Source: an uncultured Gammaproteobacteria bacterium (GTDB lineage: Bacteria; Patescibacteriota; Patescibacteriia; UBA11705). Taken from it: a stretch of 64,000 bases of DNA. The notes below the pieces were generated by a model, which worked only from the letters and a program-made list of their open reading frames with translations, did not search any database and had not been told where the DNA came from. Location: NCBI GenBank assembly GCA_964592195.1, contig CAZQEI010000005.1:5689-69688 (forward strand), written 5' to 3'. Below are positions 1,049 to 58,366 of this stretch, in pieces. Each line of letters starts with the position of its first letter. Within the stretch, counting starts at the first letter, position 1. A program made the translations under genes and the position numbers.

Positions 1049-3088
<2,040 letters not shown>

Positions 3089-3223
3089 TTAAATCATTAT
3101 AAGTGCCTTATTATTTACATCCCCATTTATGGGGGAGTAAAAGTCAACCAACATGGCAAAAGAAAATATTTTTTCAAAGGTTAAAAAGTTCCAACTCCCA
3201 CCTAAAGGTGGATGTAATAATAA

Positions 3224-3763
3224 CTACACTTTAATCAATGTCACCACCAACGGCGTATATTTAAACTGCTTTTTCAAACTGGCGATGCATTTCAACAAAC
3301 TCGAAACTTTTATTTCCTTGCGTTTTCCTTCCCACGGATCAACGATCGTTGCTTGATTACTTTCTATTTTTTCTAAAACAATATAATGCCCGGCATGATC
3401 AGCATAATATTCATATTCCAAATATTTGGCATCCAAATAAACCAAAATCGGCTTATTTTTTGACCAGCGTTTTAAATTCACCAAAGATATTTCACCACCT
3501 GACACTTGAATATATTCGTTATCTTTTAACATTTTCTTCAAGTGCTTTTTGTATTGTTCAAATTCAACGATTACTTTTAATTTAACATGATACTTATTCA
3601 CAAACTCAGACAAAACACCAGGATGATAATCTAAATATTTCTTTTTCAACCCATTCAATAGCAACTGACCTTCAGCAGCTTTCGACATTTTGACACCAGT
3701 TAACATCGCCAAAGCGCATAGACCGCAACTTTGTGTATAATTTTGTTCTAACGGTTTAATCAT
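3224..3763 (-). CDS. standalone peptidase C39-like (papain-fold, double-glycine-leader peptidase-like) domain protein
   Basis: N-terminal Q-x4-SCGLCALAML matches the C39 QxxxxCGxAxLxM[IL] catalytic Cys motif, with a later His (HAGHYIVL). There is no fused ABC transporter. Confidence 0.45.
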   Translation of the reverse strand: MIKPLEQNYTQSCGLCALAMLTGVKMSKAAEGQLLLNGLKKKYLDYHPGVLSEFVNKYHVKLKVIVEFEQYKKHLKKMLKDNEYIQVSGGEISLVNLKRWSKNKPILVYLDAKYLEYEYYADHAGHYIVLEKIESNQATIVDPWEGKRKEIKVSSLLKCIASLKKQFKYTPLVVTLIKV

Positions 3764-3960
3764 ATTAAAAATTTAAATATTTCAAATTAAACATTTATAA
3801 TCTCATTTTCGCGCATTTGACCTTCTAATTTTTGTAAACGAATTTTCGCTTCTGCTTTATTCATATATTGCAATGCAAATTAATTTCGTGTTTGGAATTT
3901 GTAATTTTGGAATTTGTAATTTGGGATTTGCCCCGAAGGGGCCCCTTTGGGGGAATTTAT

Positions 3961-5121
3961 TTATACATTTATTATTTCTTTTATCACCGTTGTGCCATTA
4001 AAACCATAAACCGCACATTGAGTGTTAGAAATCGGTTTGATGCTGGTAATTTCCTTAATACCACTATTTCTAGAACAAACCTCACCTTTATCATTCATAA
4101 CTACATGATTCCCCTCTCTATTCATCACACAATAAATTAGACGCTCGCCAACTACTTGAGTTAAACCATATTCAACTAAACGACCAAAATTACCGGGCAG
4201 GATTTCTTTGCCATCTACCCAGAGATGTTCTTCTCCTGAGCCTTCAAATGAAACAGCCACCAGTTTATTATTCCAAAACAATATCTTTTTTATCATTTTT
4301 AATTTTAACGTCCAATCAACCATTTTACTATTTATTTCAACGCCATTTTGTGCATTACTTTTACGCTGTAAAATAACCGCCAAATCATTTTCATTACGAG
4401 CAAAACCTAATATTATTGAATCTCCGGGAGCGTTATAAATTAGTCCTCCCTCAGAGACCACAGATTGACATCCCGCCATGATTGCAACAACATATAATTT
4501 ACCATCAATAAGATTAATGCCTCCAAATTTACTTACCTTATATTTACTCACCCAATCAATCCGCTTTTCATCAACCCAGATATGCAGTTTGTCAGAATTG
4601 TCTCTCCCATAAATGATAAAATGTCCATTTGAGTTTGCAACATCCACTCGATCCACAACCTCGGGGACTGCGTATTCATGCCCATTTTTCATATAGACAC
4701 CCGGCTTTAAATTATTCCTAGACTCATCACAAACCGAAACTGCATAACCATCTGGAATGCTAATTAAATTGTAGAAATTTGCATAATCCTCAGTTAGCAC
4801 ATTACCTAGATCATCCATAAGAATATCATTCTCACCATTTCTTATATGATAAACAAAACCTTTTTCAAGAGGAACAACGTTAAATATTTCAATATTTTCA
4901 CCTTCAATAAAATCACGAACATTCACACTGACAGCTTCCAACGACTCAGGTTTTACCAACCCGGCATAGTTTTCCACTTCTTTCAACAGTCGCGCCACAT
5001 GATCAGGATCTTTAGGATTACCGGTTTTGGCTAGTTCGCGCAATCGTTCATTAACATCAACCAAACTCACTGATTGCTCGTGAGTAACATCGCCGGTTAA
5101 TTTTTGTTCAAATGGTGACAT
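3961..5121 (-). CDS. N-module family protein F1 (conserved N-terminal module MSPFEQKLTG.. plus predicted beta-propeller-like C-terminal region)
   Basis: The ORF track gives 3961-5226. The homologous start MSPFEQKLTGDVTHEQSVSLVDVNERLRELAKTGNPKDPDHVARLL is at ATG 5119-5121, and the upstream 35 codons are read through a GC hairpin repeat. Confidence 0.6.
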   Translation of the reverse strand: MSPFEQKLTGDVTHEQSVSLVDVNERLRELAKTGNPKDPDHVARLLKEVENYAGLVKPESLEAVSVNVRDFIEGENIEIFNVVPLEKGFVYHIRNGENDILMDDLGNVLTEDYANFYNLISIPDGYAVSVCDESRNNLKPGVYMKNGHEYAVPEVVDRVDVANSNGHFIIYGRDNSDKLHIWVDEKRIDWVSKYKVSKFGGINLIDGKLYVVAIMAGCQSVVSEGGLIYNAPGDSIILGFARNENDLAVILQRKSNAQNGVEINSKMVDWTLKLKMIKKILFWNNKLVAVSFEGSGEEHLWVDGKEILPGNFGRLVEYGLTQVVGERLIYCVMNREGNHVVMNDKGEVCSRNSGIKEITSIKPISNTQCAVYGFNGTTVIKEIINV

Positions 5122-5212
5122 TGTATTGTATATTATGAAATCTACTTCCTGCTTTTCCGCCTGAGGCGGATCCGCCTTTGGCGGAGGAATTTTGGATTTG
5201 AAATTTGGAATT

Positions 5213-6904
5213 TTAATTTTTATCATTTAACTCATTCTCATGAACAAACATAAAATTTTCGAGATCGAATAATCGTTTGTAAAGTTTATCATCTTGGCGA
5301 TAAGTCACCCAAGCGAATGACTTTGATGCTGGTGTGATGGAAACAAAGGCATCAGAGACTAAAATGCAAGGCGCTATCACTTGCTCACGCCCTTGTTCAT
5401 CAAACATGATCCAATCATCACCATCCTTCAACCTTTTTGTGACAAAAATTACCTTATCACCCACAGGAATCGATTTTATCCCATTTCCAGTGGAAACATC
5501 AAGAATTGTCTTTATAACACCTCTATCAGGACTAAAAATTGTAGTGTAGCGACTATCCGCCCCATGTTTGGATGAATAGTACAACTTATTTTGTGAATTA
5601 TGAATCACGGCACAATCTGACAACTCTTCATTAAAAAACTTTTTAGTTATCCTTTCCCCTTTTGCATTAAATACTTGCGTTCCAAAATTTTCATAATAAC
5701 CAATCACATACACCTCCTCGCCTTGAACAACCAATGAACTAGGTGTAGAGCAACCAGATTGCAAAAAATTCATATCCAAGTTACCATTAACCGCCAGGCA
5801 GGTACTAGCGGAGACTCTTAAAGAATGAGTAGAATAAACATGCTGACTATTTTCAACTATATTAACAACCCGACCATCAACATTATTTTTAATAACCTTA
5901 CCGCTTGAATTGAGTATGTATGCTTGAGAAATATTATTTACAGGCCAACTGCCTACCAAAAAGAATCCTTGGCCCTCATTATTCACTCTCACTGCGGGAT
6001 TTGAAATATAACCTTCCAGCGGTTCGCCGGTGGGTGTCGAGCCAAGGTACCCAGGCGTATTTTTCTTGCCCCAAATTTCACCTTTGTGATCACATATATA
6101 AAAATGTTGATCCTTGTCCTTCAATGCCATAAAAACTTTATCCCCGACTGGTTGCAAATGTCCAGTAATAATATATTCATCGGGCAAATCAAGAATACCA
6201 TCACGCTCAGAATACAGGCACCACTTATTATTTTTGATAACTAAGAACATATACTGACCTTGAAATCGAATAACTGTTTGCACGTCAATTCTAGAAAATT
6301 CTCCCTTGAATCTTTTACCATCCATCGTTACCAAGGAATAAAAGCCATCCATTTCTTTCTCTTGCCAAACTGCAAAATCTCCGGACATCAAATTTTGATA
6401 ATTCGCAGTTTCATTGACAGAAACATTAGGATTGATAACTTCGTTTTTTTCATTCACAAACCTATTCGGATTAAACCCTCCATCATTCTTGTCCCCTACA
6501 AAAATCACTTGACTTCCCACTTCACCTATTTCTGTGAAAGTGACAAAACCTTTACCTCCGGAAATATCTTCATTCGATTCATTAAAAACATGAACCATAC
6601 CATCCTTGTCATCGCAGGTAAAAAACAAGTGGCCATCAAAAACATAAATATTACTTTTATCCAAATTTGCAATTTGATTTATTTCATCAGTCTCAAATAA
6701 ATGAACAATCACATCATTTAAAATTTCCGACTTTTCAATCTGATTGGAATAGGCTGCCACTAAAGACAACAAAGTCTTCACTCTTCGCGGATCACGAGTA
6801 TCACCCTCCTTTACCACTTCACGCAGGCGTTCGTTTAAATCAACCAAGCTCACCGATTGATCGTGAGTAATATTGCCAGTTAGTTTTTGTTCAAATGGTG
6901 ACAT
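5213..6904 (-). CDS. N-module family protein F2 (563 aa, beta-propeller-like C-terminus)
   Basis: Starts MSPFEQKLTGNITHDQSVSLVDLNERLREVVKEGDTRDPRRV. The C-terminal region is rich in beta-strand repeats. Confidence 0.6.
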   Translation of the reverse strand: MSPFEQKLTGNITHDQSVSLVDLNERLREVVKEGDTRDPRRVKTLLSLVAAYSNQIEKSEILNDVIVHLFETDEINQIANLDKSNIYVFDGHLFFTCDDKDGMVHVFNESNEDISGGKGFVTFTEIGEVGSQVIFVGDKNDGGFNPNRFVNEKNEVINPNVSVNETANYQNLMSGDFAVWQEKEMDGFYSLVTMDGKRFKGEFSRIDVQTVIRFQGQYMFLVIKNNKWCLYSERDGILDLPDEYIITGHLQPVGDKVFMALKDKDQHFYICDHKGEIWGKKNTPGYLGSTPTGEPLEGYISNPAVRVNNEGQGFFLVGSWPVNNISQAYILNSSGKVIKNNVDGRVVNIVENSQHVYSTHSLRVSASTCLAVNGNLDMNFLQSGCSTPSSLVVQGEEVYVIGYYENFGTQVFNAKGERITKKFFNEELSDCAVIHNSQNKLYYSSKHGADSRYTTIFSPDRGVIKTILDVSTGNGIKSIPVGDKVIFVTKRLKDGDDWIMFDEQGREQVIAPCILVSDAFVSITPASKSFAWVTYRQDDKLYKRLFDLENFMFVHENELNDKN

Positions 6905-7021
6905 TCTGTTAGATTTAAGATTAGAGTTTATAGATTGTAGATATTATGGGTGATGGTAATTGGGATAAGGATGCCAGAAAATAATATTCGTGGATTCCCC
7001 GCGTGGCGGGGCAGGCGTGGT

Positions 7022-8260
7022 CTAATTCGAGAGATCTTCCTCCGACACTGGTTCCATAATATCAACTGTCACGCAAATCGCTTGACCATCTTTAACTCCA
7101 TAAACCTTGCATATATTATCTTTTATTGGTTTCACAAAACTAATCGCATCGAATATGCCAACTCGAATGCAAGCCTCACCTTCATGGTTAACCAATCGCA
7201 ACCCATCGGAAGCATAGTCAGCAATCACAAACCCATCACCGACCTTCGTTAGTTCTTTACCATTTTCAATAATAATAAGTGGTTCTGCTGAGTCTGATGC
7301 CATCACTGTGTTCCTGGGGAAATCATTGTCAGCAACATATAAAGCCTTCCCTTCCCAAATTATGGAATTCCCAACCATATTTAAAATACGATCATCCAAA
7401 AATTTTTGATTTTTTCCTCTAATTTGTTTTATTCCGTAATGTTTATTGAACTCATCACGGTATTTAACATATAAACCATCCTCACCATCAGTAAATATTT
7501 CATTAACATTAAGACAACTAAACAATTCTTCCACTTATACCCCATCAATAAGCAAAAAATGTGTCTTATCACGCGATCCGACACAGACAATTTGATTATG
7601 ATAAAAACAAAAACTTGTAAAATATGAATAATTACTGGCCCATTCCTGTTCCTGTCCGTCAATCATCAAGGATGCAACAACTGTTTCTTTATTTCGTTTA
7701 TAGCCATCATCAGTAAAGATTATTTCGTGGCCACCAACATTCTTAACTGAAACACCTGAAAAGTTTTTATACCTGAGATCTTCTCCATTTTTTCTAATAA
7801 TCACAATATCCTCATGAAAGTCATTATGAAATCTCGATGGATGACTGCCCCTTTTACCTGTGGCAACAAATGAATCTCCAACTGATACTAAGTTGTTCAC
7901 TTCCCGTAAATTTTCAGACAAAACCTTACCTTTATTATCGACAATGATAAAATCCGAAGCTCTCCTCCCGATGATCACCGCACCACCAGCAATCGGCACA
8001 ACCTTCATAATTTGGTAAATGCCTAAATTTTCAAAATTAAAAACATCAAAGAGAACCTTCTTGCCTAATTTAATCTCATCCAAATCATCTTCAAATTCTT
8101 TTGAATATTTCTCCACCAATTGCAATAAAGCAGCAACGTTCTTTGGATCACGCGGATTTTTCACTTTTGCAGCTTCGTGCAAGCGTTCGTTAATATCAAC
8201 CAAACTCACCGCTTGATCGTGAGTAATATTGCCAGTTAATTTTTGTTCAAATGGTGACAT
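7022..8260 (-). pseudogene. N-module family member F3, interrupted by an in-frame TAA (7535-7537)
   Basis: ORFs 7535-8260 (N-module MSPFEQKLTGNITHDQAVSLVDINERLHEAAKVKNPRDPKNV) and 7022-7534 are in the same frame, separated by a single TAA. Together they are colinear with the intact paralog at 8387-9616 (both C-termini end ...ICKV.G..D..QAICVT...SEEDL). Confidence 0.55.
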
Positions 8261-8386
8261 TCTGTTAAATTAGAGATTATAGATTTTATGTGATAATTAA
8301 ATCTTATTCGTGGATTCGTGGGAAATTCGTGGATTCCCCGCGTGACGGGGCAGGCGTGGGACATTTATGGATTTGCGGTCAATATA

Positions 8387-9616
8387 TTATAGATCTTCCG
8401 CTGAAACAGTTGTCATCGTATTTATAGTCACACAAATCGCTTGATTATTTTTATCAATTCCACAAACTTTGCAAATATTACCTTTAACAGGAAGAATGTC
8501 AGTAATTCTAACAAAATCAGATGGTTCTATACATGATACTCCTAAATAATTATAAACAGTTACACCATCGCCGGAAAGATCCCTACCAATCACGAGAAAA
8601 TCTTCATTAAAAGGAATAATGCCAAGCGATTCCTTGACTGTAAACAAGGGATTATTTTTATCTTTGGTCAAAGTAATATCGAGATAGCCTTGACCTGCAG
8701 TTGAGGATGTTTTCATGAATACCATCTGACCATAATTACCAGAGTATACAACTTGGTTGTTCACAATCCTAGTTAATTCAACCTCTTTGGAATCGTCATT
8801 TGTTTGAATTTCTTTAACCAATGTTACAGTTGTAATCCGCTTATCCGTGTAACAAACAAATAATTCATCCTTGGCATTTGAAATTAAATTAGTCACAGAG
8901 TCACAATCAGGTAACTCTTCCTCTTCCTTACCATCTAAAACAAGCCACCATTTACCATCACGATAACCAGCGCATGCGATGCCTTTGCAATAAGAACAAA
9001 ATGCTTTAACCTTTATATACTTTTTTGCCCACTCTTGATTTATTCCATTAATAATAACTTTAGCGGGTAAGTTCGTTTGATTTATTTTATGATAGGCGTA
9101 GACAATTTCACAATTATCAACAATCGCAATATTTGCATATCTATAACCGATTAACGATTCGTCTTCTCCCTGTGGTCGAACCACATTTATACTACCACCA
9201 CGATGAACAAGCGCGACAAAAGAATCTGTACCAATCCTATGAGGTCTGACATAAACATGATCAAAATTATCAGAATATTTTTTCCCATCAGTATCTAACA
9301 AAATTTTACCGGACTGATCATCACCATAAATCAAGATCTTCCTGCCAAAAAGTAAAACTGACTGGATATATTTTAATCCATATCTTTGAATAATATCCGA
9401 GTTGAAAAGTATTTTTTTCCCTAATTTTGTCCCATATAATTCATCCTCAAATTCCATGGAATATTGCTCCACCAATTGCAACAATGTGGCAACGTTTTTC
9501 GGGTCACGCGGGTTTTTACCTTTTGCGACTTCACGCAAGCGTTCGTTAATATCAACCAAACTCGCCGCTTGATCGTGAGTAACATCGCCAGTTAATTTTT
9601 GTTCAAAAAGAGACAT
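8387..9616 (-). CDS. N-module family protein F4 (beta-propeller-like C-terminus)
   Basis: The homologous start MSLFEQKLTGDVTHDQAASLVDINERLREVAKGKNPRDPKNV is at ATG 9614-9616. The ORF track start at 9640 adds 8 codons. Confidence 0.6.
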   Translation of the reverse strand: MSLFEQKLTGDVTHDQAASLVDINERLREVAKGKNPRDPKNVATLLQLVEQYSMEFEDELYGTKLGKKILFNSDIIQRYGLKYIQSVLLFGRKILIYGDDQSGKILLDTDGKKYSDNFDHVYVRPHRIGTDSFVALVHRGGSINVVRPQGEDESLIGYRYANIAIVDNCEIVYAYHKINQTNLPAKVIINGINQEWAKKYIKVKAFCSYCKGIACAGYRDGKWWLVLDGKEEEELPDCDSVTNLISNAKDELFVCYTDKRITTVTLVKEIQTNDDSKEVELTRIVNNQVVYSGNYGQMVFMKTSSTAGQGYLDITLTKDKNNPLFTVKESLGIIPFNEDFLVIGRDLSGDGVTVYNYLGVSCIEPSDFVRITDILPVKGNICKVCGIDKNNQAICVTINTMTTVSAEDL

Positions 9617-9775
9617 AAGACTAATTAAAGAATAATACAAGGCTACAGATGCTACCGATATTTTCTACCGATACTACTGATTTAAAAATTAGTTCCCTGT
9701 ATTGGAATTTTCCGCCGGTCATCGACTCCGAGGTAAATGTATGTTTCGTCGCTCAGACTCGAGGAGAGGCGGATC

Positions 9776-9795
9776 CCTGCCTACCGGCAGGCAGG
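9776..9795. repeat. REP-like palindrome, near-perfect copy (cctgcctaccggcaggcagg) embedded in ggcggatcc...ttggcggag hairpin context
   Basis: One mismatch relative to the 20-bp perfect palindrome seen at 14298, 24445, 29132 and 45045. Confidence 0.55.
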
Positions 9796-9828
9796 CGCCT
9801 TTGGCGGAGATTATTGGTGCTTGGTTAT

Positions 9829-11406
9829 TTAAACTAACGGTTGCCCCGTAATATATTTCGGTATCTCCACATTCATTATTTTCAACGCCGTAGCCGTCAC
9901 ATCTGACAACAATCCAACTGGTCGCAATAAACTTAAATCATTACCAATCAATTGTGATTCTGGTGAACTCTTGCCTTGATATTTTTCACCGACGATAATT
10001 AACGGCACTGGATTAGTGGAATGGTCTTTACTGATTTCGCCAGTTTGCAAATTGCGCAATTCTTCGCAGTTACCATGGTCAGAAGTTATAATACAATTAC
10101 CACCTTTGGAAAGAACTAAATCAACTAATTGCCCTAAACAATAGTCTACGGTTTCTACTGCTTTAATACAGGCGGGAATATCACCGGTATGACCAACCAT
10201 GTCAGGATTGGCGTAGTTAACTACAATAAAATCATGTTTTTCTTGCATTAAGGCTTTGTTCAACTTGGAAGTAACTTCCAACGCTGACATCTCCGGTTTA
10301 TCCGCGTAACTAGCTACGCGCGGAGAAGGGATAACATCGCGATCTTCAGCTTTGAAGGCCGCTTCTGCGCCACCATTGAAAAAGAAAGTTACATGCGCGT
10401 ATTTTTCTGTTTCCGCAATGTGATATTGACTCAAACCAACATCACTAACTATTTTGGATAAACAAGTAGAAACCTTTTCCTTGTGCATAGCCACTTCCAC
10501 CGGTAACCCTTCTTCATATTCAGTCATGGTAATCATCTTGATATTGTTAACTTTCTTGCGGTTAAAGCTATCAAATTCATCCAAAACCAAGGCTTTAGTT
10601 AATTGTCGCGCACGATCAGAACGATAGTTCATAAAAATTACCGCATCGCCATCTTCAATAGTGGCCACTGGTTTTCCACCTTCGGTAATAACAACAGGTA
10701 CAAACTCTTCATCAAAAACTTTTTTTGAATATGAGGCTTCTACGGCAGTCACGGCATCGTCAAAAGTTTCATCGCTCGTGCCTTCCACCATGGCTTTGTA
10801 AGTTTTTTCCACACGTTCCCAATGATTATCACGATCCATGGCATAAAATCGACCGGAAACAGTAGCAATTTTCCCTATACCAATCTCTGCTATTTTCTTT
10901 TTCAACGAAGTCATGTATTCTTTACCACCATTAAAAATCGTATCACGACCATCAATAAAGCAATGCAAGAAGACATCCTTAATTTTTTGTTGTTTGGCAA
11001 ATTCCAGCAAAGCATAAGCATGTTCAATAGTGGAGTGCACTTTGCCATCGCTCATCAAACCAATAATATGCAAGCGTGATTTATTTTGGCGCACATGTTC
11101 AGCGGCTGACAAAAACTTTTCATTTTCAAAAAATGCGCCATCATTAATATCTCTATCAATTAATGGTAAATTTTGAAACAAAACTTTACCCACACCCAAA
11201 TTGGTGTGTCCAACTTCAGAATTTCCAATCTCCCCCCAAGACAAACCGACTGATTCACCAGAGGCCAATAAAGTATAAACTGGGTAATTGGAAGCATACT
11301 TATCAAAATTCGGTTTTTTCGCCAGCGAAATACTATTACTATCACAGGGTGGCGCGATCCCAAAGCCATCCAAAACAATTAACACTAAAGGTTTGCGTTG
11401 AGACAT
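9829..11406 (-). CDS. gpmI: 2,3-bisphosphoglycerate-independent phosphoglycerate mutase, paralog 2
   Basis: 525 aa. N-terminal LVLIVLDGFGIAPP...LAKKPNFD and overall colinearity with the adjacent iPGM. Confidence 0.85.
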   Translation of the reverse strand: MSQRKPLVLIVLDGFGIAPPCDSNSISLAKKPNFDKYASNYPVYTLLASGESVGLSWGEIGNSEVGHTNLGVGKVLFQNLPLIDRDINDGAFFENEKFLSAAEHVRQNKSRLHIIGLMSDGKVHSTIEHAYALLEFAKQQKIKDVFLHCFIDGRDTIFNGGKEYMTSLKKKIAEIGIGKIATVSGRFYAMDRDNHWERVEKTYKAMVEGTSDETFDDAVTAVEASYSKKVFDEEFVPVVITEGGKPVATIEDGDAVIFMNYRSDRARQLTKALVLDEFDSFNRKKVNNIKMITMTEYEEGLPVEVAMHKEKVSTCLSKIVSDVGLSQYHIAETEKYAHVTFFFNGGAEAAFKAEDRDVIPSPRVASYADKPEMSALEVTSKLNKALMQEKHDFIVVNYANPDMVGHTGDIPACIKAVETVDYCLGQLVDLVLSKGGNCIITSDHGNCEELRNLQTGEISKDHSTNPVPLIIVGEKYQGKSSPESQLIGNDLSLLRPVGLLSDVTATALKIMNVEIPKYITGQPLV

Positions 11407-11410
11407 ATAG

Positions 11411-13012
11411 TTACTTGCCTGCCTGAGCAGGCGGGTGATTTATTAACGATTGACCGACTACGGTAGCTGGTTGTTTAATCTCCATAAAGTCATAGATAGT
11501 CGGGGCAATATCTCCTAAACTACCATCGTGTAAATGCACTTTTTTAGTTTTCGAATGCATGATAACAAACGGCACGGGATTAGTGGTATGCTCAGTGAAC
11601 ACTTCACCGGTTTTTTCATCAATCATTTTCTCCGCATTACCATGATCAGCCGTCACAAACATCACCCCCTTCAACGAGGTAACGGCCTTCATTAATTTAC
11701 CCAAACAGATATCTACATGTTCAATCGCCTTGATGGTTGCCTTCAAATTACCAGTATGACCAACAATGTCTGGATTGGCAAAATTAACCACAATGAAATC
11801 AAATTTTTTAGCTTTAATCGCCTTTAAAATATAATCAGTAATAGTATACACTGACATTTCTGGTTTTAAGGCGAAGTTTCTCACTTTATCCGAAGGAATT
11901 AAAACTCGAGTTTCGTCAAACACTTCATGCGGGTAACCGCCATTGATGAAATACGTCACATGTGCAAACTTTTCCGATTCTGCTATATACAGTTGTTTGT
12001 AATTATTCATAACAAAAGGCAACGTCCCCAACAATTCAGCTCCGGGAAAAGCCGTAATCAATTCGCTTGATAAATCCGGGCCAAAATATGTAAAAGCACA
12101 AAACAAAACATTTCTCAAAGATTTAGAGCGCTTAAACGAACCAGGATTTTCTGCGTTAAACCTCTTTTGCACAAATGCTTTTGTCAATTGACGAGCCCGA
12201 TCAGAACGTAAATTGAAAAAAATCACGGCATCATCATTTTTAATTCGCGACTCGGAAAAATCAGAACGGCCACGATCAATAATCGACGGTTCGATAAACT
12301 CATCTGTCAACTCGGAATTGTATGCATGTTCAATGGCATCTTTGTAATAAGTAAATTTCAATCCCTTACCCCCGACCAAACAATCATAGGCTTTCTTAGT
12401 TCGATCCCAATTCTTGGCACGATCCATCGCATAAAATCGTCCCAGCAACGTTACCAGTTCCCAACCCTTATATCCATGATTAAGTTTCTCGAGTTTTGTC
12501 AACAACTCATGAATAATCCTATGGGAAGAATGTTGAGCTGAGTCACGACCGTCAGTAAATAAATGTAAAAAAACTTTTTCAATTTTCTGTTGCCGTGCCC
12601 ACTCCACCAAAGCGACCAAGTGACTTAACGAACTATGAGGGCTATCACCATCCGACACCATACCCATTAAATGTAATCGGGATTTATTGGCAATAATATG
12701 ATCATTAACATATTTAAAAGAAATATTTTGATAAAAAGAACCATCAGCGATCGCGCGATTAATAATGACATTATCCTGAAACACGACCCGACCAGCGCCG
12801 ATGTTCATGTGTCCAGCTTCAGAATTACCAGCTAAACCATCTGGCAAGCCAACGCAACTTTCGCTGGCGCACAATTTGGCATGCGGATATTTTTTCCATA
12901 ATGAATCGAAGTTTGGTTTCTTGGCCAGCTCAATAGCATTGCCCGGCCCTTTGGGTGCCAAACCAAAACCATCCATGACTAATAAAATTGTTGGTTGATA
13001 TTTTTTAATCAT
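11411..13012 (-). CDS. gpmI: 2,3-bisphosphoglycerate-independent phosphoglycerate mutase, paralog 1
   Basis: 533 aa. ILLVMDGFGLAPKGPGNAIELAKKPNFD and metal-binding regions typical of iPGM. Confidence 0.85.
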   Translation of the reverse strand: MIKKYQPTILLVMDGFGLAPKGPGNAIELAKKPNFDSLWKKYPHAKLCASESCVGLPDGLAGNSEAGHMNIGAGRVVFQDNVIINRAIADGSFYQNISFKYVNDHIIANKSRLHLMGMVSDGDSPHSSLSHLVALVEWARQQKIEKVFLHLFTDGRDSAQHSSHRIIHELLTKLEKLNHGYKGWELVTLLGRFYAMDRAKNWDRTKKAYDCLVGGKGLKFTYYKDAIEHAYNSELTDEFIEPSIIDRGRSDFSESRIKNDDAVIFFNLRSDRARQLTKAFVQKRFNAENPGSFKRSKSLRNVLFCAFTYFGPDLSSELITAFPGAELLGTLPFVMNNYKQLYIAESEKFAHVTYFINGGYPHEVFDETRVLIPSDKVRNFALKPEMSVYTITDYILKAIKAKKFDFIVVNFANPDIVGHTGNLKATIKAIEHVDICLGKLMKAVTSLKGVMFVTADHGNAEKMIDEKTGEVFTEHTTNPVPFVIMHSKTKKVHLHDGSLGDIAPTIYDFMEIKQPATVVGQSLINHPPAQAGK

Positions 13013-16908: not shown

Positions 16909-18180
16909 TTAGTGGGTAGCACAGCTGATACACGGATCATACGCGCGAACTAAAGTTTTCAACAACAATTTCTGTTTTTCAACTGGGAACTTCTGAATTT
17001 GTGGTAAAAACGCGCCCAAATCATTTTCCAGATTGGCAAGGAACATCGCAGTTGGTGTTATTATATTCGAATTAATAACTATTCCCTGATTATTCAATTC
17101 ATAATAATGGATCAAAATCCCACGCGGCGCTTCCACCACACCCACACCTTTACCTGCTTGTGGCTTAAAATCAACGAAAAGTTTCTTATTTTTCAATTTT
17201 AAATATTTTGGTAACAACTTTTCCAATTCTTCAAAAGCATGGATAATTTCCACTGCTTGAGCCAACGTGTTAAAAAAGGAATTGTAACAAGGTTGACTAG
17301 CTTTGAACGATTTCCAAATCTTTTTAGCCAAAGGATTAAGTTTATCACCATTCAAATTAACCCGCGCCAAGGAACCAACCATAAATGGTTGTTCAAAATA
17401 TTTCACCCGTTTCACACCTTCGCCCTGAAAACAGTATTCTTCAAAATATTTTAAATACTCCAGGGGATCATTGACTTTTTGTTTATCCCCAACATTAATC
17501 ACGCCATCATAATGCGCATATTCACTTTTGCTTTTCATTCCAGCATACAATGTTTGATTGGAAAACTTCGGTGGTTTGGCTTTACTTTTTACAAATTCAA
17601 CAATCTTGATCGCCATTTTTTTAGCATCTTGAATCTCCGCATGCAAAGCCTGTAATTTTTCTTCATCTGGCACCACTTTAAAACCACCAACTACGCTATT
17701 AATCGGATGCGTGGCTCGTCCACCAATAACATCGCACAAACGCAAAGCCCAATCACGCATGACTAACGCGGAAGTGGATTGTTTAGTATATTTTTTAACT
17801 AGATCAAAGTCATTATTCACGCCGACAAAATCTGGAAACGATAAAAAGTAAACATGTAATGCATGGCTATGAATCCATTGCGCCAAGTTAAAAATTTTAC
17901 GCAACAAAACAATCTCGGCCGTTGGTTCAACATTCATGGCCATTTCCAAAGCTTTAATTGCCGCTAAATTATGCACAATCGGACACACACCGCAAATTCT
18001 GGCAGTAATAATTGGCACATCGTAATAAGATCGATTCAAAACAATCCCCTCCATTAACCGCGCTCCTTCAAGAGTTAAAATTCTGGCGCTAGCCATATCA
18101 GCTTGTTGCAAAGTCGCTTCCAGACCCAAGTGCCCTTCTGTTTTGCCTATGTGATTGATGGTAATAGTTTTTTGTGACAT
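16909..18180 (-). CDS. hydA: [NiFe] hydrogenase large (alpha) subunit, group 3b/sulfhydrogenase-like
   Basis: N-terminal RICGVCPIVH and C-terminal DPCISCATH nickel-binding motifs. Confidence 0.9.
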   Translation of the reverse strand: MSQKTITINHIGKTEGHLGLEATLQQADMASARILTLEGARLMEGIVLNRSYYDVPIITARICGVCPIVHNLAAIKALEMAMNVEPTAEIVLLRKIFNLAQWIHSHALHVYFLSFPDFVGVNNDFDLVKKYTKQSTSALVMRDWALRLCDVIGGRATHPINSVVGGFKVVPDEEKLQALHAEIQDAKKMAIKIVEFVKSKAKPPKFSNQTLYAGMKSKSEYAHYDGVINVGDKQKVNDPLEYLKYFEEYCFQGEGVKRVKYFEQPFMVGSLARVNLNGDKLNPLAKKIWKSFKASQPCYNSFFNTLAQAVEIIHAFEELEKLLPKYLKLKNKKLFVDFKPQAGKGVGVVEAPRGILIHYYELNNQGIVINSNIITPTAMFLANLENDLGAFLPQIQKFPVEKQKLLLKTLVRAYDPCISCATH

Positions 18181-18189
18181 ATTTTATTT

Positions 18190-19182
18190 TTATTCTTTTA
18201 AAAATGCTATTGTAATGCGAAAACCGGTTGTCTGGCTCGGGGTGTAAACATTTTCATTGGTTGTAGTATATAGACTTCCTGCACCTCCATTTTCACTACC
18301 ACCTACTAATATTCGCATATTTGATTTATAACCATCGTGACTAACAACAAAAGTTCCTGATAATTCTGAAGTTTTAACTTGACTTAATCCAGGGAATTCT
18401 TCATTCAATCTACGATTAACAAGTGCCGGAGTCAAAATAACTTCAAAATTTGGCAAACTCAACCCTTCTTCATTCCATTTTTTTTGAATTATATTTTTTA
18501 ATTTTGGAAAAGTATTCGAAATTAACCACATACCCACCCTATTAAAGCGAAGATTTGAACCACCACCTATCATTTTAGCTATTGGATCTAGGTTTTCAAT
18601 ACTCCCAGAATATGAGCCATAGTGTTCCCCCATAACCTCGCCCTCAAGACTGTTTGGTCTTATTATGGTTTCTGTTACCAATAAAGAATATTTTTCTGCT
18701 ACTTCTTTAGCATCCTTAATTAATGACCGCTCCATAACTTCTGACATGATTGAACCTGGCTGATGAACTAAACTATACACACCAGGACTTCTTTGCCATA
18801 AATGTGATCTAAAATTTACCAATGTTTTGTCTTTATCTGGCAAAGCATTCCACTGGCTTTCAGTAATTTCGGGGAACAAAGATAAAAATTTCTCATGATT
18901 CATATCACCATCTTCAGCCGGATCAGTAATAAATGGTTCAAATTGTCCAAAAATTAATTCTTTTATGGCGTCAATATGTTCACTATATTTTTCCGCTGGG
19001 GTAATAGTCTCAACCGTTCCGGCATACTCTTCCACCAATCGCAAAGCTTCCGCCACTTGATCGGGTTTGGGAATTTTTTGGTTCTTTATTTCAACCGCCA
19101 AATCTCGTAACTTTTCATTTACTGAAACAACTGTGGCACCTTGTTCTGGCTTTAAATTTTGAGTTAATCGTTCACCTATCAT
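18190..19182 (-). CDS. N-module family protein F5 (type-B C-terminal domain) inserted between the hydrogenase small and large subunit genes
   Basis: The likely start MIGERLTQNL..VNEKLRDLAVEIKNQKIPKPDQVAEALRLVEEYAG is at ATG 19180-19182. It shares IDAIKELIFGQFEPF, VILTPALVNRRLNEEFPGLSQV, ENGGAGS and the C-terminal GFRITIAFLKE with the 54998-58367 array. Confidence 0.6.
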   Translation of the reverse strand: MIGERLTQNLKPEQGATVVSVNEKLRDLAVEIKNQKIPKPDQVAEALRLVEEYAGTVETITPAEKYSEHIDAIKELIFGQFEPFITDPAEDGDMNHEKFLSLFPEITESQWNALPDKDKTLVNFRSHLWQRSPGVYSLVHQPGSIMSEVMERSLIKDAKEVAEKYSLLVTETIIRPNSLEGEVMGEHYGSYSGSIENLDPIAKMIGGGSNLRFNRVGMWLISNTFPKLKNIIQKKWNEEGLSLPNFEVILTPALVNRRLNEEFPGLSQVKTSELSGTFVVSHDGYKSNMRILVGGSENGGAGSLYTTTNENVYTPSQTTGFRITIAFLKE

Positions 19183-19183
19183 T

Positions 19184-19948
19184 TTATTGTTTTTTAACAG
19201 GAGACATAAATTCTTTAATACCAAACACTTTCAATACGTCATTTATCTGCGATTGAGTAAAACCTTTTTCTTTTAATAAATTCAACCAGTTTTCAATGGC
19301 CGGCGCGCGTAGCAAACCGCGACACCCCCAACACGCCTGTCCATTAGTTGGACAAATAGCGTCGCAACCGCCTTGAACAATTGGACCAAGACAAATCTCT
19401 CCAGCTTGTAACAAACATTTGTTTCCTTTTTTCAAACATTCATAACAAACAGGATTTTGTTTAATGGTTGGACGTTTACCGGCGACAAGACTGTAAATGA
19501 ATTGTAAAATTTCTTTTTTAATTACCGGACATGTTGGCAAAGAAAAATCTACTTTGACATACTCGGAAATCGGCTTCACCTCAGGATTATCTAAATTTTG
19601 ATCTTCATCATAAACCTTGGCCATCAACCGAGATTTATCACTATAATTTTTCATATGGTAAATACCACCGATATGCGCGCAAGATCCACACGCCACTAAG
19701 ATCTTGGCTTGCCAACGATATTGTTTCAATAAACGAATATTGTGTTTGGTAATCGGACTACCTTCTACAAACACCACATCCACTTTTTGCGTACCTCGAA
19801 ATTCTTCATCTTCAAACAACCGAAAATCTACAATATCTATTTTATCTTTTAATGCCACAAATTTTTCTCTCAATCCTAATAATTCAAAATAACAACCTTC
19901 GCAACTGGTCAATGAAACAAAGGCAAATTTAAGCTTTTTGTGCGCCAT
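19184..19948 (-). CDS. hydD: [NiFe] hydrogenase small (delta) subunit
   Basis: FVSLTSCEGCYFELL and VACGSCAHIGG cysteine motifs of hydrogenase small subunits. Confidence 0.85.
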   Translation of the reverse strand: MAHKKLKFAFVSLTSCEGCYFELLGLREKFVALKDKIDIVDFRLFEDEEFRGTQKVDVVFVEGSPITKHNIRLLKQYRWQAKILVACGSCAHIGGIYHMKNYSDKSRLMAKVYDEDQNLDNPEVKPISEYVKVDFSLPTCPVIKKEILQFIYSLVAGKRPTIKQNPVCYECLKKGNKCLLQAGEICLGPIVQGGCDAICPTNGQACWGCRGLLRAPAIENWLNLLKEKGFTQSQINDVLKVFGIKEFMSPVKKQ

Positions 19949-24695: not shown

Positions 24696-25763
24696 TTATT
24701 CTTTGACAAAATGCATCTTTCTCGTGTCCATATCAACGACCACAGCCATGGGATTCATCAGTTTGGCAAATTCAGGGTACTTATCTTGAATTTTTTCCAC
24801 AGCGAATCTTTGCATAAACAATGCCTTTTCTCGTGCCAACAATGGTTCCACTCCAACAGCATCACGATAAATGGCTGAGCACAAAAGAACAAAATTCTCA
24901 TGAGTAACACGACTGCCTTCCATATTACTTTTAATAATACCAGCCGCTTTTTCAATCGGCTCATCCAGATTTGGACTGAACGGTCCGATGATCAAAGCCA
25001 TGTTCGGCTCATGCAACCAGTCAAAGCCACGACCAACACCAATCACCCATTCTCGATGTTCAGTATCACTCAACGGTCGATTACTCAGTTGCACTTCTTC
25101 AATGTGAGCAATATTACCAACAATCAAAGGCAAGAAATCTTCCAAAATTCTCGACGGCATGTCCGGATACAAACGCTTCAACATCATCCGCAAAGCTTTT
25201 TCGGATTTATCTTCAATTTGAGAAACATCGACAACTTCACCATTTTCACCATTCAAAATTACCGCGTCCAAATCAGTTTCAAAACCAAAGAGCACAGGAT
25301 AGACCACTTGATGTTGACTGCCGAAAACCCGTTCCACTTGTTGCTTCAACTTCCGCGTTTCCGACAATGCCAATTCATAATTATAACCATAACCAGCACA
25401 ACCACGATGAGTATTTCCACGCGAATAGTGATAAGTAACCAAAATCAAACATTTCTTTCCGTTGCTAACCGAATACTTCACCCAATTCATGACATCCAAA
25501 CCAAAGTGCGGCCAACCCATATCAAACTGTCCACCAATGTTGCGCCAAGGTTGAATGATTCCAAGTGGCGTGTTTGTGGCCACGGGAATATGGATTCTGC
25601 CATCCATACATTTAAAAGCCGCGATTTCTGTCGGATGTTTCGCGCGATACAATTCACGTGCCAATCTCGCATCTGGACTGGAAAATTGATCTGAGTGCTT
25701 TTTGTTCAACCTCATCAAATAACGAATCTGTTGTCGACTATTCACGTATCCTCCTTGTCCCAT
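24696..25763 (-). CDS. beta-carbonic-anhydrase-like zinc protein (long form), paralog 1
   Basis: FKCMDGRIH (C-x-D-x-R) and HYSRGNTHRGCAGYGY (H-x-x-C-x-G) resemble the two beta-CA zinc-ligand motifs. The protein is about 355 aa, longer than canonical beta-CA. Confidence 0.4.
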   Translation of the reverse strand: MGQGGYVNSRQQIRYLMRLNKKHSDQFSSPDARLARELYRAKHPTEIAAFKCMDGRIHIPVATNTPLGIIQPWRNIGGQFDMGWPHFGLDVMNWVKYSVSNGKKCLILVTYHYSRGNTHRGCAGYGYNYELALSETRKLKQQVERVFGSQHQVVYPVLFGFETDLDAVILNGENGEVVDVSQIEDKSEKALRMMLKRLYPDMPSRILEDFLPLIVGNIAHIEEVQLSNRPLSDTEHREWVIGVGRGFDWLHEPNMALIIGPFSPNLDEPIEKAAGIIKSNMEGSRVTHENFVLLCSAIYRDAVGVEPLLAREKALFMQRFAVEKIQDKYPEFAKLMNPMAVVVDMDTRKMHFVKE

Positions 25764-25879
25764 TTTAGGGACTTTTGGTTGTCAAAGTAGATGTATATAT
25801 TAACAAATATTATGGTTTTGTCAATCAAGCAAAAACCCCACTTTCGTGGGATTTTCGTGTATAGTTTCATCTTTTGAGA

Positions 25880-26968
25880 TTACTCAGTCACAACCGTCAT
25901 TTTACGCGTCACCATATCAACTGTGACCGCCATCGGATTCATTAAATCAACCAATTCTGGGAATTTAACTTTAATAGTTTCAATCGCAAACCGTTTCATA
26001 AATAAAGCTTTTTCCTTCGCCATCAACGGTTCTGAACCGGCGGCATCGCGATAAATTGCAGAACACAACAATGTAAACGATTGATTACCGGTACGACCAG
26101 CTTCCATGTTACTCTTAATAATACCGGCCGCTTTTTCAATTGGCTCAGCCAAGTTCGGACTAAACGGTCCAATAATTAAAGCTGTATTTGGTTCATGTAA
26201 CCAGTCAAAGCCACGACCAACACCAATCATCCATTCTCTATGTTCCGTATCACTCAACGGTCTATTGCTCATTTTTACTTCTTCAATATGCGCAACATTA
26301 CCAACTATTAAAGGTAAAAAATCAGCTAAAATTCTCAATGACATATCTGGGAATAATCGTCGTAACATGCTACGCAAACCTTCCTCAGTTTTATCTTGAA
26401 CTTCTGACAAATCCACCACTTCTCCATTTTCACCATGTAAAATCACCGCATCCAAGTCAGTTTCAAACCCAAATAATATAGGGTAAACAATTTGATGACT
26501 GGAACCATAAACACGTTCAATCTGTTGTTTCAATTTCTTTGTTTCACTCAAGGCTAACTGAGTATCATAGCAATAACCGGCGCAACCTCGGTGTTCGTGA
26601 CCACGAGAATAATGGTAGGTCGCCAAGATTAAACAATCACGACCATTACTAACGGAATATTTAACCCAGTTATTCACATCCATACCAAAATGAGGCCATC
26701 CCATATCAAACTTGCCACCCAAATTTCTCCAAGGTTGAATAATTCCCAATGGAGTATTTGTCGCAATCGGAATATGAATACGACCATCCATACATTTGAA
26801 CGCCGCAATTTCTGTCGGATGTTGGGCGCGATATTTTTCCCGAGCCAAACGAGCACCAGGACTAGAAAAAATATCTGAATGTTCTTTATTTTTTTTCAAT
26901 AAATATTCAATCTGCTCATCTCGAGTGATTGGATCATTATTTTGATTATTATTTAAATCACTTGTCAT
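25880..26968 (-). CDS. beta-carbonic-anhydrase-like zinc protein (long form), paralog 2
   Basis: A tandem paralog (FKCMDGRIH, HYSRGHEHRGCAGYCY), largely colinear with the gene at 24696. Confidence 0.4.
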   Translation of the reverse strand: MTSDLNNNQNNDPITRDEQIEYLLKKNKEHSDIFSSPGARLAREKYRAQHPTEIAAFKCMDGRIHIPIATNTPLGIIQPWRNLGGKFDMGWPHFGMDVNNWVKYSVSNGRDCLILATYHYSRGHEHRGCAGYCYDTQLALSETKKLKQQIERVYGSSHQIVYPILFGFETDLDAVILHGENGEVVDLSEVQDKTEEGLRSMLRRLFPDMSLRILADFLPLIVGNVAHIEEVKMSNRPLSDTEHREWMIGVGRGFDWLHEPNTALIIGPFSPNLAEPIEKAAGIIKSNMEAGRTGNQSFTLLCSAIYRDAAGSEPLMAKEKALFMKRFAIETIKVKFPELVDLMNPMAVTVDMVTRKMTVVTE

Positions 26969-33099: not shown

Positions 33100-33195
33100 C
33101 TACGAATGACATATTTGCTACGCTTGTCCGCCTCAGGCGGAAAACAACGGATATAATATCGATACGTAGATTCGTAGCTGATTCGTTATTGGTAG
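33100..33195. repeat. Composite GTAG-rich intergenic repeat family R2, copy ii
   Basis: tctacgaatgacatatttgctacgc + GC hairpin ccgcctcaggcgg + cgtagattcgtagctgattcgttattggtag. Confidence 0.6.
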
Positions 33196-38703: not shown

Positions 38704-39675
38704 TCAAATACTTGGGTCTGGTTTCCATTTAAATAATATCCCTGCTGTCCCAAAGGCTGACATAGTCGGTCTCAAACCATCTTGACATAAAACAATTTCA
38801 TCATTCACCACGCCAACGCCCACATGATCTCTTCGCCTGACATCAAAAGCTCTAAAGAAACCTATATCACTACCTGGTTTATGAAAATGTTCTGGTCCAC
38901 GAACCATAATGAAATATAGTAATTCCTCAATCGTTACTCCATATTTTTCCCAAATTTTTTTTGCACTAGTCATCGATGGTTGTAATAGATTTAAATGACT
39001 AGCAAAATTTTGTATTGCTTTTGCACGAAGGAAAAAATCATCTTCCGTTAAACTTGACCCCTCCACAATGTTATTGCTAATCAACATCCAACCAGGAGAT
39101 AACGATTTCGTGTCCGGAATGTTTAGTCTTAAAATATCTGGAAAATTTCCGGCATTGAGAGAAGTGCTTTGCATTCTCATAGTCACTTTTCTATCAAGTA
39201 AAAAGCGACACATATCATAAAGTTTCGGAGACTCAGTTAATTTACCAGCAACAACCATATAACGAGGAATATAGACCAAGCTCATGTTCAATTCTTTTGC
39301 TCTTTTCAACTCGCCAACATTAAATGGAATCTCGGGTATCCCGGATCTTTCTTCCAAAAATAAATATTCATCAAATTTACTGCTACAAAACGCATTATCT
39401 TCTGGTCCGTAAACATTATCATGACCCATAATTTCTCGAGCTAATTCAAATTGCATCTCCCACGGGGAGCCAAACTCACGCCTTTTAACAGGATTATAAG
39501 CCTCTAATTTTTCTTTTATAATTCTAATCTCATCCGGACTCAAAGGCTTACCATTCTTAGCTTTCACCATGGCATGCAGTTGCTCCATTAAATCAGCGTA
39601 AGAAAGAGATTCTTCGCCTTTTGATAAGGTTAAATCAATTTTTGGTTCACCGATGGCCATATTTATTTTTCCCAT
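38704..39675 (-). CDS. N-module family protein A1 (type-A C-terminal domain)
   Basis: MAIGEPKIDLTLSKGEESLSYADLMEQLHAMVKAKNGKPLSPDEIRIIKEKLEA, then SLVYIPRY, GWMLISNNIV and a C-terminal GILFKWKPDPSI. The probable true start is the internal MAIGEPK Met. Confidence 0.55.
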   Translation of the reverse strand: MGKINMAIGEPKIDLTLSKGEESLSYADLMEQLHAMVKAKNGKPLSPDEIRIIKEKLEAYNPVKRREFGSPWEMQFELAREIMGHDNVYGPEDNAFCSSKFDEYLFLEERSGIPEIPFNVGELKRAKELNMSLVYIPRYMVVAGKLTESPKLYDMCRFLLDRKVTMRMQSTSLNAGNFPDILRLNIPDTKSLSPGWMLISNNIVEGSSLTEDDFFLRAKAIQNFASHLNLLQPSMTSAKKIWEKYGVTIEELLYFIMVRGPEHFHKPGSDIGFFRAFDVRRRDHVGVGVVNDEIVLCQDGLRPTMSAFGTAGILFKWKPDPSI

Positions 39676-42453: not shown

Positions 42454-42455
42454 AA

Positions 42456-47508: not shown

Positions 47509-47619
47509 ATTTGGTAAGTTGGCCTGCCTGCGTAAGGCAGGTAATTGGTAAAAAAGTAAATTGGTACATGGAATATTAAAAAAACGAGCAAAATGCTCGA
47601 ATTTTTATTATTATTTTAT

Positions 47620-55951: not shown

Positions 55952-55956
55952 GATAA

Positions 55957-58352: not shown

Positions 58353-58366
58353 GTATAAAATTCAAA

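Follow-up and report, generated by a model that had tools for sequence, protein, structure and literature searches.

A tandem array of anciently duplicated, putatively propeller-type paralogs with a shared, lineage-restricted N-terminal module, one copy carrying an internal stop codon and a C39-like gene lying downstream

The analysis concerned a stretch of 64,000 nucleotides (nt) of the NCBI contig CAZQEI010000005.1, hereafter the window, and, within it, a cluster of four paralogous genes (F4, F3, F2, and F1) followed by an open reading frame (ORF) for a C39-like protein. The four genes are arranged in tandem on the minus strand, in the order F4, F3, F2, F1; a spacer of 197 nt separates them from the C39-like ORF, which is in turn followed by ligA. 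The N-terminal region of about 55 residues, referred to as the N-module, is common to all four proteins, as revealed by tblastn searches within the window. An earlier note on this DNA, made from the sequence alone, had described such a tandem of four genes, and all of them were found on the minus strand, with boundaries differing by a few bases at most. The cluster is composed as follows:

8387..9616, minus strand: F4, intact, 409 amino acids (aa), with the N-module (residues 1 to about 58), a body of about seven predicted blades, and a conserved C-terminal closing segment.
7022..8260, minus strand: F3, 412 codons when read through one internal TAA.
7535..8260, minus strand: F3a, the first part of F3, 241 codons encoding the N-module and about four predicted blades, ending at the TAA (7535-7537).
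7022..7534, minus strand: F3b, the second part of F3, 170 codons encoding about three predicted blades and the closing motif, with a GTG directly after the TAA, colinear with residues 233-409 of F4.
5213..6904, minus strand: F2, 563 aa, in which the N-module precedes a beta-rich body of greater length with a C-terminal closing segment like that of F4.
3961..5121, minus strand: F1, 386 aa from the ATG at 5121.
3224..3763, minus strand: the C39-like ORF, 179 aa, stand-alone, with no signal peptide, membrane segment, or further domain.

The ATG start codons of F4, F3, F2, and F1 are located at 9616, 8260, 6904, and 5121, respectively. F3 matches F4 over its full length and across the internal stop (37% identity, E = 2e-70, tblastn within the window), and the colinearity of its two halves with the intact neighbor, already proposed on inspection, is therefore borne out by the alignment. 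F1 and F3 can also be aligned over their full length, with 29% identity, and F2 aligns to the propeller-class alignment over 405 columns (hhalign probability 99%, E = 1.8e-18). A C-terminal motif is common to F3 (ICKVYGVKDGQAICVTVDIMEPVSEEDL) and F4 (ICKVCGIDKNNQAICVTINTMTTVSAEDL); the sharing of this motif had been correctly noticed, except that F4 reads SAEDL instead of SEEDL and that a one-residue indel separates the two copies. Concerning F1, its longest ORF encodes 421 aa starting from the ATG at 5226, and the N-module begins at Met36 of this ORF, i.e., 35 codons in. Since the credible family members described below have the module beginning within residues 1-12 (with the only exception of one mis-annotated start), the true start of F1 is probably the ATG at 5121, and the annotated one would be 35 codons too early.

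The dS (synonymous divergence) of the bodies ranges from 1.4 to 2.0 between paralogs (approximately 2), that is, synonymous sites are saturated and the duplications that gave rise to the array are old. The array thus consists of anciently duplicated and strongly diverged paralogs of a lineage-restricted family. The N-module behaves differently from the bodies in this respect: in the comparison between F3 and F4 (8049-8260 versus 9405-9616) its dS is 0.56, far below the value of about 2 of the bodies, the effect covering the 5' portion of about 170 nt. This might be the outcome of either gene conversion or a constraint acting at the nucleotide level. As a separate observation, the distances from start to start between F4 and F3 and between F3 and F2 are both exactly 1356 base pairs (bp), resulting from different combinations of gene and spacer (1230+126 versus 1239+117); the two periods are equal despite the 37% protein identity and several indels, which may be a coincidence or reflect a constraint on the length of the unit.

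The fold of the bodies was approached through an AlphaFold model of F4, built on the four-sequence alignment of the paralogs F1-F4. The model has a mean predicted local distance difference test (pLDDT) score of 68.9 and a predicted template modeling score of 0.66, with residues 66-260 scoring 74-93 in ten-residue blocks; it shows two helices (14-33 and 39-55) followed by groups of four strands forming about seven blades. Foldseek retrieved 202 PDB matches at E <= 0.001, the best with E of about 5e-6, and all the 50 matches listed are beta-propellers or propeller-containing proteins, including DCAF1, WDR91, LIS1, and the propellers of prolyl-oligopeptidases. On the basis of this model, the bodies of F1-F4 are assigned with moderate confidence to the beta-propellers, with about seven four-stranded blades and a length varying between copies, in agreement with the propeller-type label that they had received in the earlier note; the conserved C-terminal segment plausibly represents the last strand group, closing the ring. 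The likeness to WD40 and prolyl-oligopeptidase-type propellers lies in the approximately seven antiparallel, four-stranded blades and in the conserved terminal strand of the F4 model. The differences are the template modeling (TM) scores of 0.3-0.4, the uncertainty of one third of the model, and the lack of any Pfam repeat or PDB sequence match: F1-F4 gave no Pfam or NCBIfam match at E <= 1, and their bodies correspond to no described repeat family (WD40, Kelch, PQQ, or WG-repeat) in these searches.

The N-module is located at the extreme N-terminus. Its signature has, at about residues 8-11, Leu-Thr, which is invariant, and then [Ala/Gly]-[Asn/Asp]; two predicted helices come next, VNE.L..LA and P(E/D).V..AL.LV. 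A hidden Markov model search of the ORFs of the window disclosed 11 clear N-module genes, so that the idea of a four-member family holds for the array and underestimates the window; besides F1-F4, these genes start at 19182, 38086, 55951, 57186, 58352, 59344, and 59655. A profile search of 1.84 billion (1.84e9) cluster representatives returned 48 matches, namely 12 on this contig (the 11 of the window plus P0044, outside it), 35 credible external ones, and one repetitive false positive, and the family is hence counted as 47 members. The window's own proteins are singletons in this collection, all coming from one NCBI contig (81,855 bp); together with the ten external matches that were looked up, they are distributed over five NCBI contigs. 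Clustering of the C-terminal bodies that follow the N-module revealed at least six unrelated classes:

Proteins of about 235 aa with an unknown domain: 17 members.
Propeller: 14 members.
Class C, found in the array at 55-59 kilobases (kb) and inside the hydrogenase operon: 5 members.
Second propeller-like class: 3 members.
Leucine-rich repeats (seen in P0013): 2 members.
Another unknown class: 2 members.

The N-module itself has no match in Pfam, NCBIfam, PDB, PADLOC, or PHROG. PDB profile searches performed with three of the body classes and with the N-module gave nothing significant, and scans of the family members and of the C39-like protein with PADLOC and PHROGs were equally uninformative. 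When F4, the C39-like protein, and the N-module alignment served as queries in word-indexed homology searches, this contig's own proteins alone were retrieved; a genome-contig scan with the N-module patterns of F1-F4 yielded one chance match in Streptomyces and nothing else, and metagenome and viral scans with the alignment of the external N-modules found no match.

Three identities were considered for the N-module and rejected. The first, a ribbon-helix-helix domain, had come to mind from a strand-helix-helix look and from the "EALRLV" helix; the hhalign probability was 0.8% against Arc, Mnt, CopG, NikR, and ParD sequences, and no such family appears among the weak Pfam matches of 36 members. 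The second, a type VII secretion signal, is at odds with helix 2, which by eye is not followed by YxxxD/E. The third is a prepilin leader: the module has no Gly-Phe and no hydrophobic segment, despite the presence of a prepilin peptidase gene at another array.

The latter array lies at 55001-60461. Here, a 104-aa ORF that contains little beyond the N-module shares an ATGA with the prepilin peptidase gene (59655-60461) on one side and another ATGA with a class-C N-module gene on the other, this gene being the first of four (59344, 58352, 57186, and 55951) packed with gaps of 5-14 nt. Another class-C N-module gene (18193-19182, 330 aa) is wedged inside the NiFe-hydrogenase operon, between the genes for the small subunit (19187-19948) and the large subunit (16912-18180), its ATG being placed one base past the small-subunit stop. 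Lastly, five tandem, overlapping paralogs of 301-324 aa (38707-43361), with no Pfam match, adjoin an 801-aa N-module protein (35684-38086) and a CvpA-family gene; their conserved N-terminus (..IDLTLSKGEESLSYAELMEQLHAMVKAKNGKPLSPDE..) aligns with the N-module with an hhalign probability of 47% (E = 2e-4), and these paralogs may carry a distant version of the module.

Because one N-module precedes bodies of at least six unrelated types, we regard it, tentatively and at somewhat less than even odds, as a common handle, i.e., a targeting/export or docking signal, the variable bodies representing the diversified binding surfaces of an effector or polymorphic surface repertoire. Such bodies would offer different binding surfaces, as in the repertoires of host-dependent bacteria. 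In polymorphic toxin systems, the N-terminal trafficking module stays the same while the C-terminal domains vary (Zhang et al. 2012, PMC3482391). The family resembles these toxin and effector repertoires in having a constant N-module joined to at least six C-terminal classes in 47 proteins, and in occurring as tandem arrays of diverged copies per genome, with few genomes carrying it. It differs from them in several respects. No toxin, immunity, defence, or phage family was matched in the Pfam, PADLOC, and PHROG scans; the genes of the array are consecutive, without small intervening ORFs; the bodies are of the binding type (propeller, leucine-rich repeat), and the members are full genes and not C-terminal cassettes; lastly, the N-module matches no described trafficking domain and no secretion-system marker accompanies it, the only secretion-related neighbor being the prepilin peptidase beside the other array, whose motif the N-module does not have. 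Bacteria of the candidate phyla radiation (CPR) depend on other cells, and the way in which they recognize or manipulate their partners is hardly known. One module set on at least six binding-type domains, in at least 12 copies on a single 82-kb contig and in very few genomes, is the pattern that would be expected of a host-interaction or surface repertoire; were this correct, the N-module would point to an unknown targeting route in organisms devoid of classical effector secretion systems.

The coding sequence of F3 is interrupted by a single in-frame TAA at 7535-7537 (codon 242 of 412), directly followed by a GTG and by a frame that stays open down to 7022; the stop that had been reported to split the third gene is thus really present in the assembly sequence. 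In a three-way alignment, this TAA falls opposite Glu232 of F4, encoded by GAA, so that a single G-to-T change suffices to account for it. The 170 codons located downstream of the stop are all open, a condition maintained in 0 of 20,000 shuffles. With F1 as the outgroup, the private differences of F3 and F4 are 12 versus 25 in the N-terminal half and 14 versus 22 in the C-terminal half, and the base composition of F3b is that of a normal coding sequence for this window. No sign of relaxed constraint can therefore be recognized in F3b, either as a closed frame or as a rate excess relative to the F1 outgroup, which implies that the stop is very recent, is an error, or is compatible with a tolerated or continued function; the suggestion that it was recent or artefactual fits these data, F3 being no more diverged from F1 than F4 is. 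As to the coding meaning of the triplet, 53 long ORFs of the window end with TAA (36), TAG (11), or TGA (6); since each of the three serves as a terminator, TAA most often, stop-codon reassignment was rejected, and the view that no recoding signal is involved is upheld by this stop usage. The TAA is placed at the equivalent of residue 232 of F4, after about the fourth blade, inside the propeller and not at a domain boundary. In the reading that we favor, F3 would have undergone a very recent GAA-to-TAA nonsense change at this point; most likely, this is either a pseudogene of recent origin or a polymorphism between strains that was recorded in the consensus.

A different explanation is that F3 is in fact an intact gene of 412 aa, the TAA having been introduced by an error in the consensus, the sequencing, or the assembly. 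One base change would be enough, and the 412 codons contain no second lesion, with an open downstream frame and no accelerated divergence; however, all this is equally expected from a very recent, real mutation. Moreover, the same sequence has been deposited with F3a as a separate protein of 241 aa (P0002 in the NCBI-derived collection), and single-base consensus errors are rare in assembled short-read genomes. We thus hold an error to be unlikely, with a chance that is still appreciable. A functional split gene, in which translation would terminate at the TAA and re-initiate at the abutting GTG (TAAGTG) to give two polypeptides assembling into one propeller, appears improbable. The start codon directly after the stop would agree with it, as would the tight coupling of genes elsewhere in the window (at 59655 and 59344 neighbors share an ATGA, and at 19183 they are 1 nt apart), the lack of Shine-Dalgarno sequences as judged by eye, and the absence of decay in F3b; yet the break lies within the propeller, no other family member among the 47 is split at this point, and a recent event would account just as well for the absence of decay. 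That the TAA is read through in a programmed way, giving a full-length F3, can practically be dismissed: the frame is kept across the stop, but TAA is the main terminator (36/53 long ORFs), neither a downstream structure nor a known recoding motif was found, Rfam gave no relevant match in the region 3000-10000, and no other family member has such a stop.

The spacers of the array contain GC-rich hairpins, which the earlier note had placed between the paralogs, both the 35-nt repeats and the GGCGGATCCGCC element having been found at, or within a few bases of, the expected sites. The elements of this kind are the following:

8325..8359, minus strand: copy 1 of a 35-nt element (CCACGCCTG-CCCCGYCACGCGGGG-AATCCACGAAT), with a 6-bp GC stem and a 3-nt loop, 28 nt past the F4 stop.
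6986..7020, minus strand: copy 2 of the 35-nt element, 34/35 identical, 1 nt past the F3 stop.
5157..5186, minus strand: a double GC palindrome (CCGCC-AAA-GGCGG / GGCGGATCCGCC / CCGCCTCAGGCGG) between F2 and F1; z = -4.65 for the folded intergenic region.
9760..9809, minus strand: nested GC-rich hairpins between the phosphoglycerate mutase gene and F4, sharing CTCCGCCAAAGGCG...GGATCCGCCTC with the F2-F1 spacer; z = -3.87.

The sole difference between the two copies of the 35-nt element turns a G-C pair into a G-U one, so that pairing is kept, and the element has two matches in the window versus 0 expected. Three tandem copies of an octamer, CCACGAAT, follow the F4 hairpin (8306-8332) and one copy follows the F3 hairpin (6986-6993), which makes four of its five occurrences in the window; it could be a protein-binding motif attached to the element. 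Palindromes of the CCGCC-AAA-GGCGG type recur at 5157-5186, at 9795-9809 (upstream of F4), at 33128, and at 53247-53274. When pure-GC hairpins with a 5-bp stem are counted over the whole window, 19 of them are found at about 13 loci, versus 0.42 expected, almost all being intergenic; they are present beside unrelated genes near 20.9, 21.0, 23.2, 24.3, 33.1, 35.6, and 60.6 kb. The GC hairpins are thus not specific to the array. The 34/35 identity, in turn, cannot be a relic of the duplications since the synonymous sites of the paralogs are saturated (dS of about 2), and the element must have been kept by selection or have spread later. No U-tract follows the hairpins on the coding strand, and a terminator scan detected no minus-strand intergenic terminator; hence, they are not classic intrinsic terminators. 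They are similar to repetitive extragenic palindromic (REP)-like or terminator-like hairpins in their short, GC-only stems, in their loops of 3-5 nt, and in being over-represented and almost exclusively intergenic, and differ from them in the missing U-tract and, as regards the 35-nt element, in its conserved flanks and CCACGAAT repeats. They would represent a genome-wide intergenic punctuation (3'-end/terminator-like or REP-like) kept by selection, neither scars nor drivers of the duplications.

The same elements had been proposed to mediate the duplications, that is, to be the recombination substrates or breakpoints of the tandem array, which we judge very improbable. The two 35-nt copies do flank F3 exactly, a second type of element flanks the F4-F2 block (at 9795-9809 and 5172-5186), and the equal 1356-bp spacing of the starts might be read in the same sense. 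Nevertheless, similar hairpins occur in unrelated intergenic regions across the window, the distance between the hairpins (1339 bp) is out of register with the 1356-bp gene period, and, the paralogs being saturated, the sequence of a breakpoint would have decayed unless kept for another function; furthermore, the duplication of a gene together with its 3' hairpin would trivially give the same layout. The proposal accordingly finds no support, given the window-wide occurrence of the hairpins, the saturated dS, and the spacing. As for other identities, the 35-nt element was rejected as a CRISPR (clustered regularly interspaced short palindromic repeats) repeat, only two copies being present, 1339 bp apart. 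An exact search for the core of the 35-nt hairpin in metagenomes gave 0 matches, and Rfam on the array gave only a sub-threshold match to Gut-1 (30.9 bits, cut-off 50), which was treated as due to chance.

The C39-like protein matches Pfam PF03412 with 29.8 bits, above the curated cut-off of 22, and PF13529 (C39_2) over residues 3-144 (E = 0.0013), which agrees with its former description as a stand-alone, 179-aa protein of this kind. It retains Gln7-x5-Cys13 in QNYTQSCGLCALAML, His126 in GHYIVL, and Asp142 in VDPW, with 16 residues from His to Asp; the doubt that the catalytic Cys and His might be lacking is thereby removed. A single-sequence AlphaFold model is of low confidence (pLDDT 46) and lends weak support only; Foldseek searches with it retrieved only papain-fold Cys-His-Asp proteins, namely CtaG, the phytochelatin-synthase-like Alr0975, the pseudomurein endoisopeptidase PeiR, and the peptidase domain of PCAT1. 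No pairwise similarity to PDB C39 sequences was detected, and tblastn against plasmids gave no match. From its sequence, the protein looks like a cytoplasmic, catalytically competent Cys-His-Asp enzyme of the C39 clan. It resembles the C39 peptidases (PF03412; ComA, CvaB, PCAT1, and LahT) in passing the Pfam threshold, in the motif QxxxxxCG(L)xALxM with the oxyanion Gln six residues before the Cys, and in being of domain size (179 aa), and differs from them in that neither a transmembrane nor an ATPase part is attached to this stand-alone, cytoplasmic protein. In ComA, catalysis relies on Cys17 and His96 (PMC10630487), at a distance of 79 residues versus 113 in the C39-like protein.

The papain-fold acyl-transfer enzymes BtrH and CtaG (PDB 9quz, 9qvj, and others) are the best Foldseek matches (E from 3e-4 to 4e-3), and among PDB sequences they rank second to fourth as non-significant matches over the His/Asp segment. 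To judge from the variants C11A, H128A, and D144N that appear in PDB titles, CtaG has the layout Cys11/His128/Asp144, nearly the same as Cys13/His126/Asp142; CtaG differs in its length of about 305 aa, with an extra domain, and Pfam ranks C39 first for the protein under study, the BtrH family not being reported. The His-to-Asp spacing of 16 residues is presumably also that of ComA (His96/Asp112). Acyl-transferases occur among the papain-fold relatives, and one C39-like protein has been reported to leave double-glycine peptides uncut (PMC13642728), so that the designation of "peptidase" is itself uncertain.

The C39-like gene does not directly abut F1. It was said to lie immediately downstream of the array, and it is indeed downstream and on the same strand, but the 197-nt spacer contains a hairpin and a 25-codon remnant of ligA. 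The relevant features are:

3064-1049, minus strand: ligA, ORF call, downstream of the C39-like ORF.
3787..3879, minus strand: ligA 5' remnant, composed of 15 nt of upstream sequence and a 25-codon ORF (MNKAEAKIRLQKLEGQMRENEIINV), exactly 800 bp upstream of the real ligA start.

The direct repeat 3009-3079 / 3809-3879 spans 71 nt, of which 56 are the beginning of ligA and 15 precede it, and its two copies are 75% identical, so that the C39-like gene is embedded in an 800-bp A-X-A duplication of the ligA 5' end. This structure suggests an insertion in front of ligA, in which case the adjacency to the array may be an accident. The composition of the gene is native-like (GC content 0.335, skew -0.33), and the insertion, if any, must therefore be old. 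The C39-like gene would then be part of a small insertion by which the 5' end of ligA became duplicated, and it is most likely next to the array by coincidence, as far as its genomic context tells.

The possibility that the C39-like protein matures the family, either by cleaving at Leu-Thr-[Gly/Ala]-[Asn/Asp] near residue 10 or by removing the whole module, in a manner akin to the removal of double-glycine leaders, is hardly probable. The gene is only 197 nt downstream of the array and on the same strand, its catalytic residues are intact, and the family members have a small residue (Gly/Ala) whose distance from the N-terminus hardly varies; in addition, C39 enzymes with a non-GG specificity have been reported (PMC13642728). 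In the first 120 residues of F1-F4, however, no GG, GA, or GS is conserved, in accordance with the remark that the modules have no obvious GG site; a six-frame regex scan of the window found no ORF with a double-glycine leader (L..E-L....G[GAS]; L(-12)xxxE(-8)L(-7)xxxxGG type), and no ATP-binding cassette (ABC) transporter was found in the scans of genes of the window, which takes in all but 18 kb of the contig. In these three results, the suggestion that the enzyme processes the N-modules finds no support. Besides, there is one C39-like gene versus three or more dispersed N-module arrays in the window, the A-X-A duplication of the ligA start suggests an independent insertion, and the best structural neighbors include acyl-transferring, non-protease papain-fold enzymes. 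In the same study, a C39-like protein reportedly did not cleave double-glycine peptides (PMC13642728), which also counts against maturation.

Taken as a whole, the locus is best described as an old propeller array provided with an N-module handle, in which a stop has recently arisen in F3, the hairpins act as punctuation, and the C39-like gene is a coincidental neighbor; we assign to this account a probability of about 0.6. Several points weigh against it. In the F4 model, residues 261-330 have a pLDDT below 50, the TM-scores to propellers are 0.3-0.4, and the underlying alignment comprises four sequences. The N-module has no signal peptide, no nearby secretion system, and, in the library scans, no homolog of known function, and this account leaves its low dS (0.56 in F3/F4) unexplained and does not explain in detail why the two copies of the 35-nt element are 34/35 identical. 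The TAA may have arisen in the assembly, and the native-like composition of the C39-like gene makes a long co-residence with the array possible.

A bolder combination would make the N-module an undescribed export or processing signal of a small CPR-like group and the C39-like enzyme its maturation protease or transacylase, acting at Leu-Thr-[Gly/Ala]-[Asn/Asp] in a non-double-glycine mode and without a fused ABC transporter; we concede it only the slightest chance. An export signal of this kind would mark propeller, leucine-rich-repeat, and other binding proteins for the cell surface or for use against a host. The link with a C39-like peptidase, which had been the original attraction of the locus, is without support, and the present value of the locus lies in a defined orphan domain family and in one fresh pseudogene, the latter being the most likely status of F3.

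The window as a whole has a GC content of about 37% and a constant GC skew of about -0.2, nearly all of its genes are read from the minus strand, and no obvious Shine-Dalgarno sequence precedes the start codons on visual inspection. This bacterial chromosome segment is low in GC and probably belongs to a CPR-type genome; in its gene content, in the lack of Shine-Dalgarno sequences, and in its skew, it is similar to CPR/Microgenomates genomes (cf. PMC7143001). The array is flanked by housekeeping genes. Upstream are those for two cofactor-independent phosphoglycerate mutases (iPGM), enolase, and phosphoglycerate kinase (PGK); downstream are those for the NAD-dependent DNA ligase (ligA) and GatC. 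The other genes of the window include a NiFe-hydrogenase operon, an F-type ATP synthase operon, and the genes for methionyl-tRNA synthetase, a prepilin peptidase, and GAPDH.

Tandem duplication is not limited to N-module genes. The two iPGM genes (525 and 533 aa; 9829-13012) are themselves a tandem duplication of ordinary genes directly upstream of the array, and two proteins of about 360 aa are encoded in tandem at 24699-26968, with a weak match to the catalytic domain of the carboxysome-shell carbonic anhydrase (26 bits, cut-off 21.5). Lastly, an island of about 1.5 kb (45,980-47,560) has a GC content of 52-65% inside the 37% GC genome. Its coding strand contains no ORF of at least 110 aa, and Rfam gave no match even at E <= 0.1; a repeat of about 60 nt is present near 46460-46400 and 46075-46015, and the folding z-scores of 300-nt windows go down to values between -3 and -7 on both strands. 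The island is a candidate for a large structured RNA of an undescribed family or, as the other candidate, for foreign or chimeric DNA.

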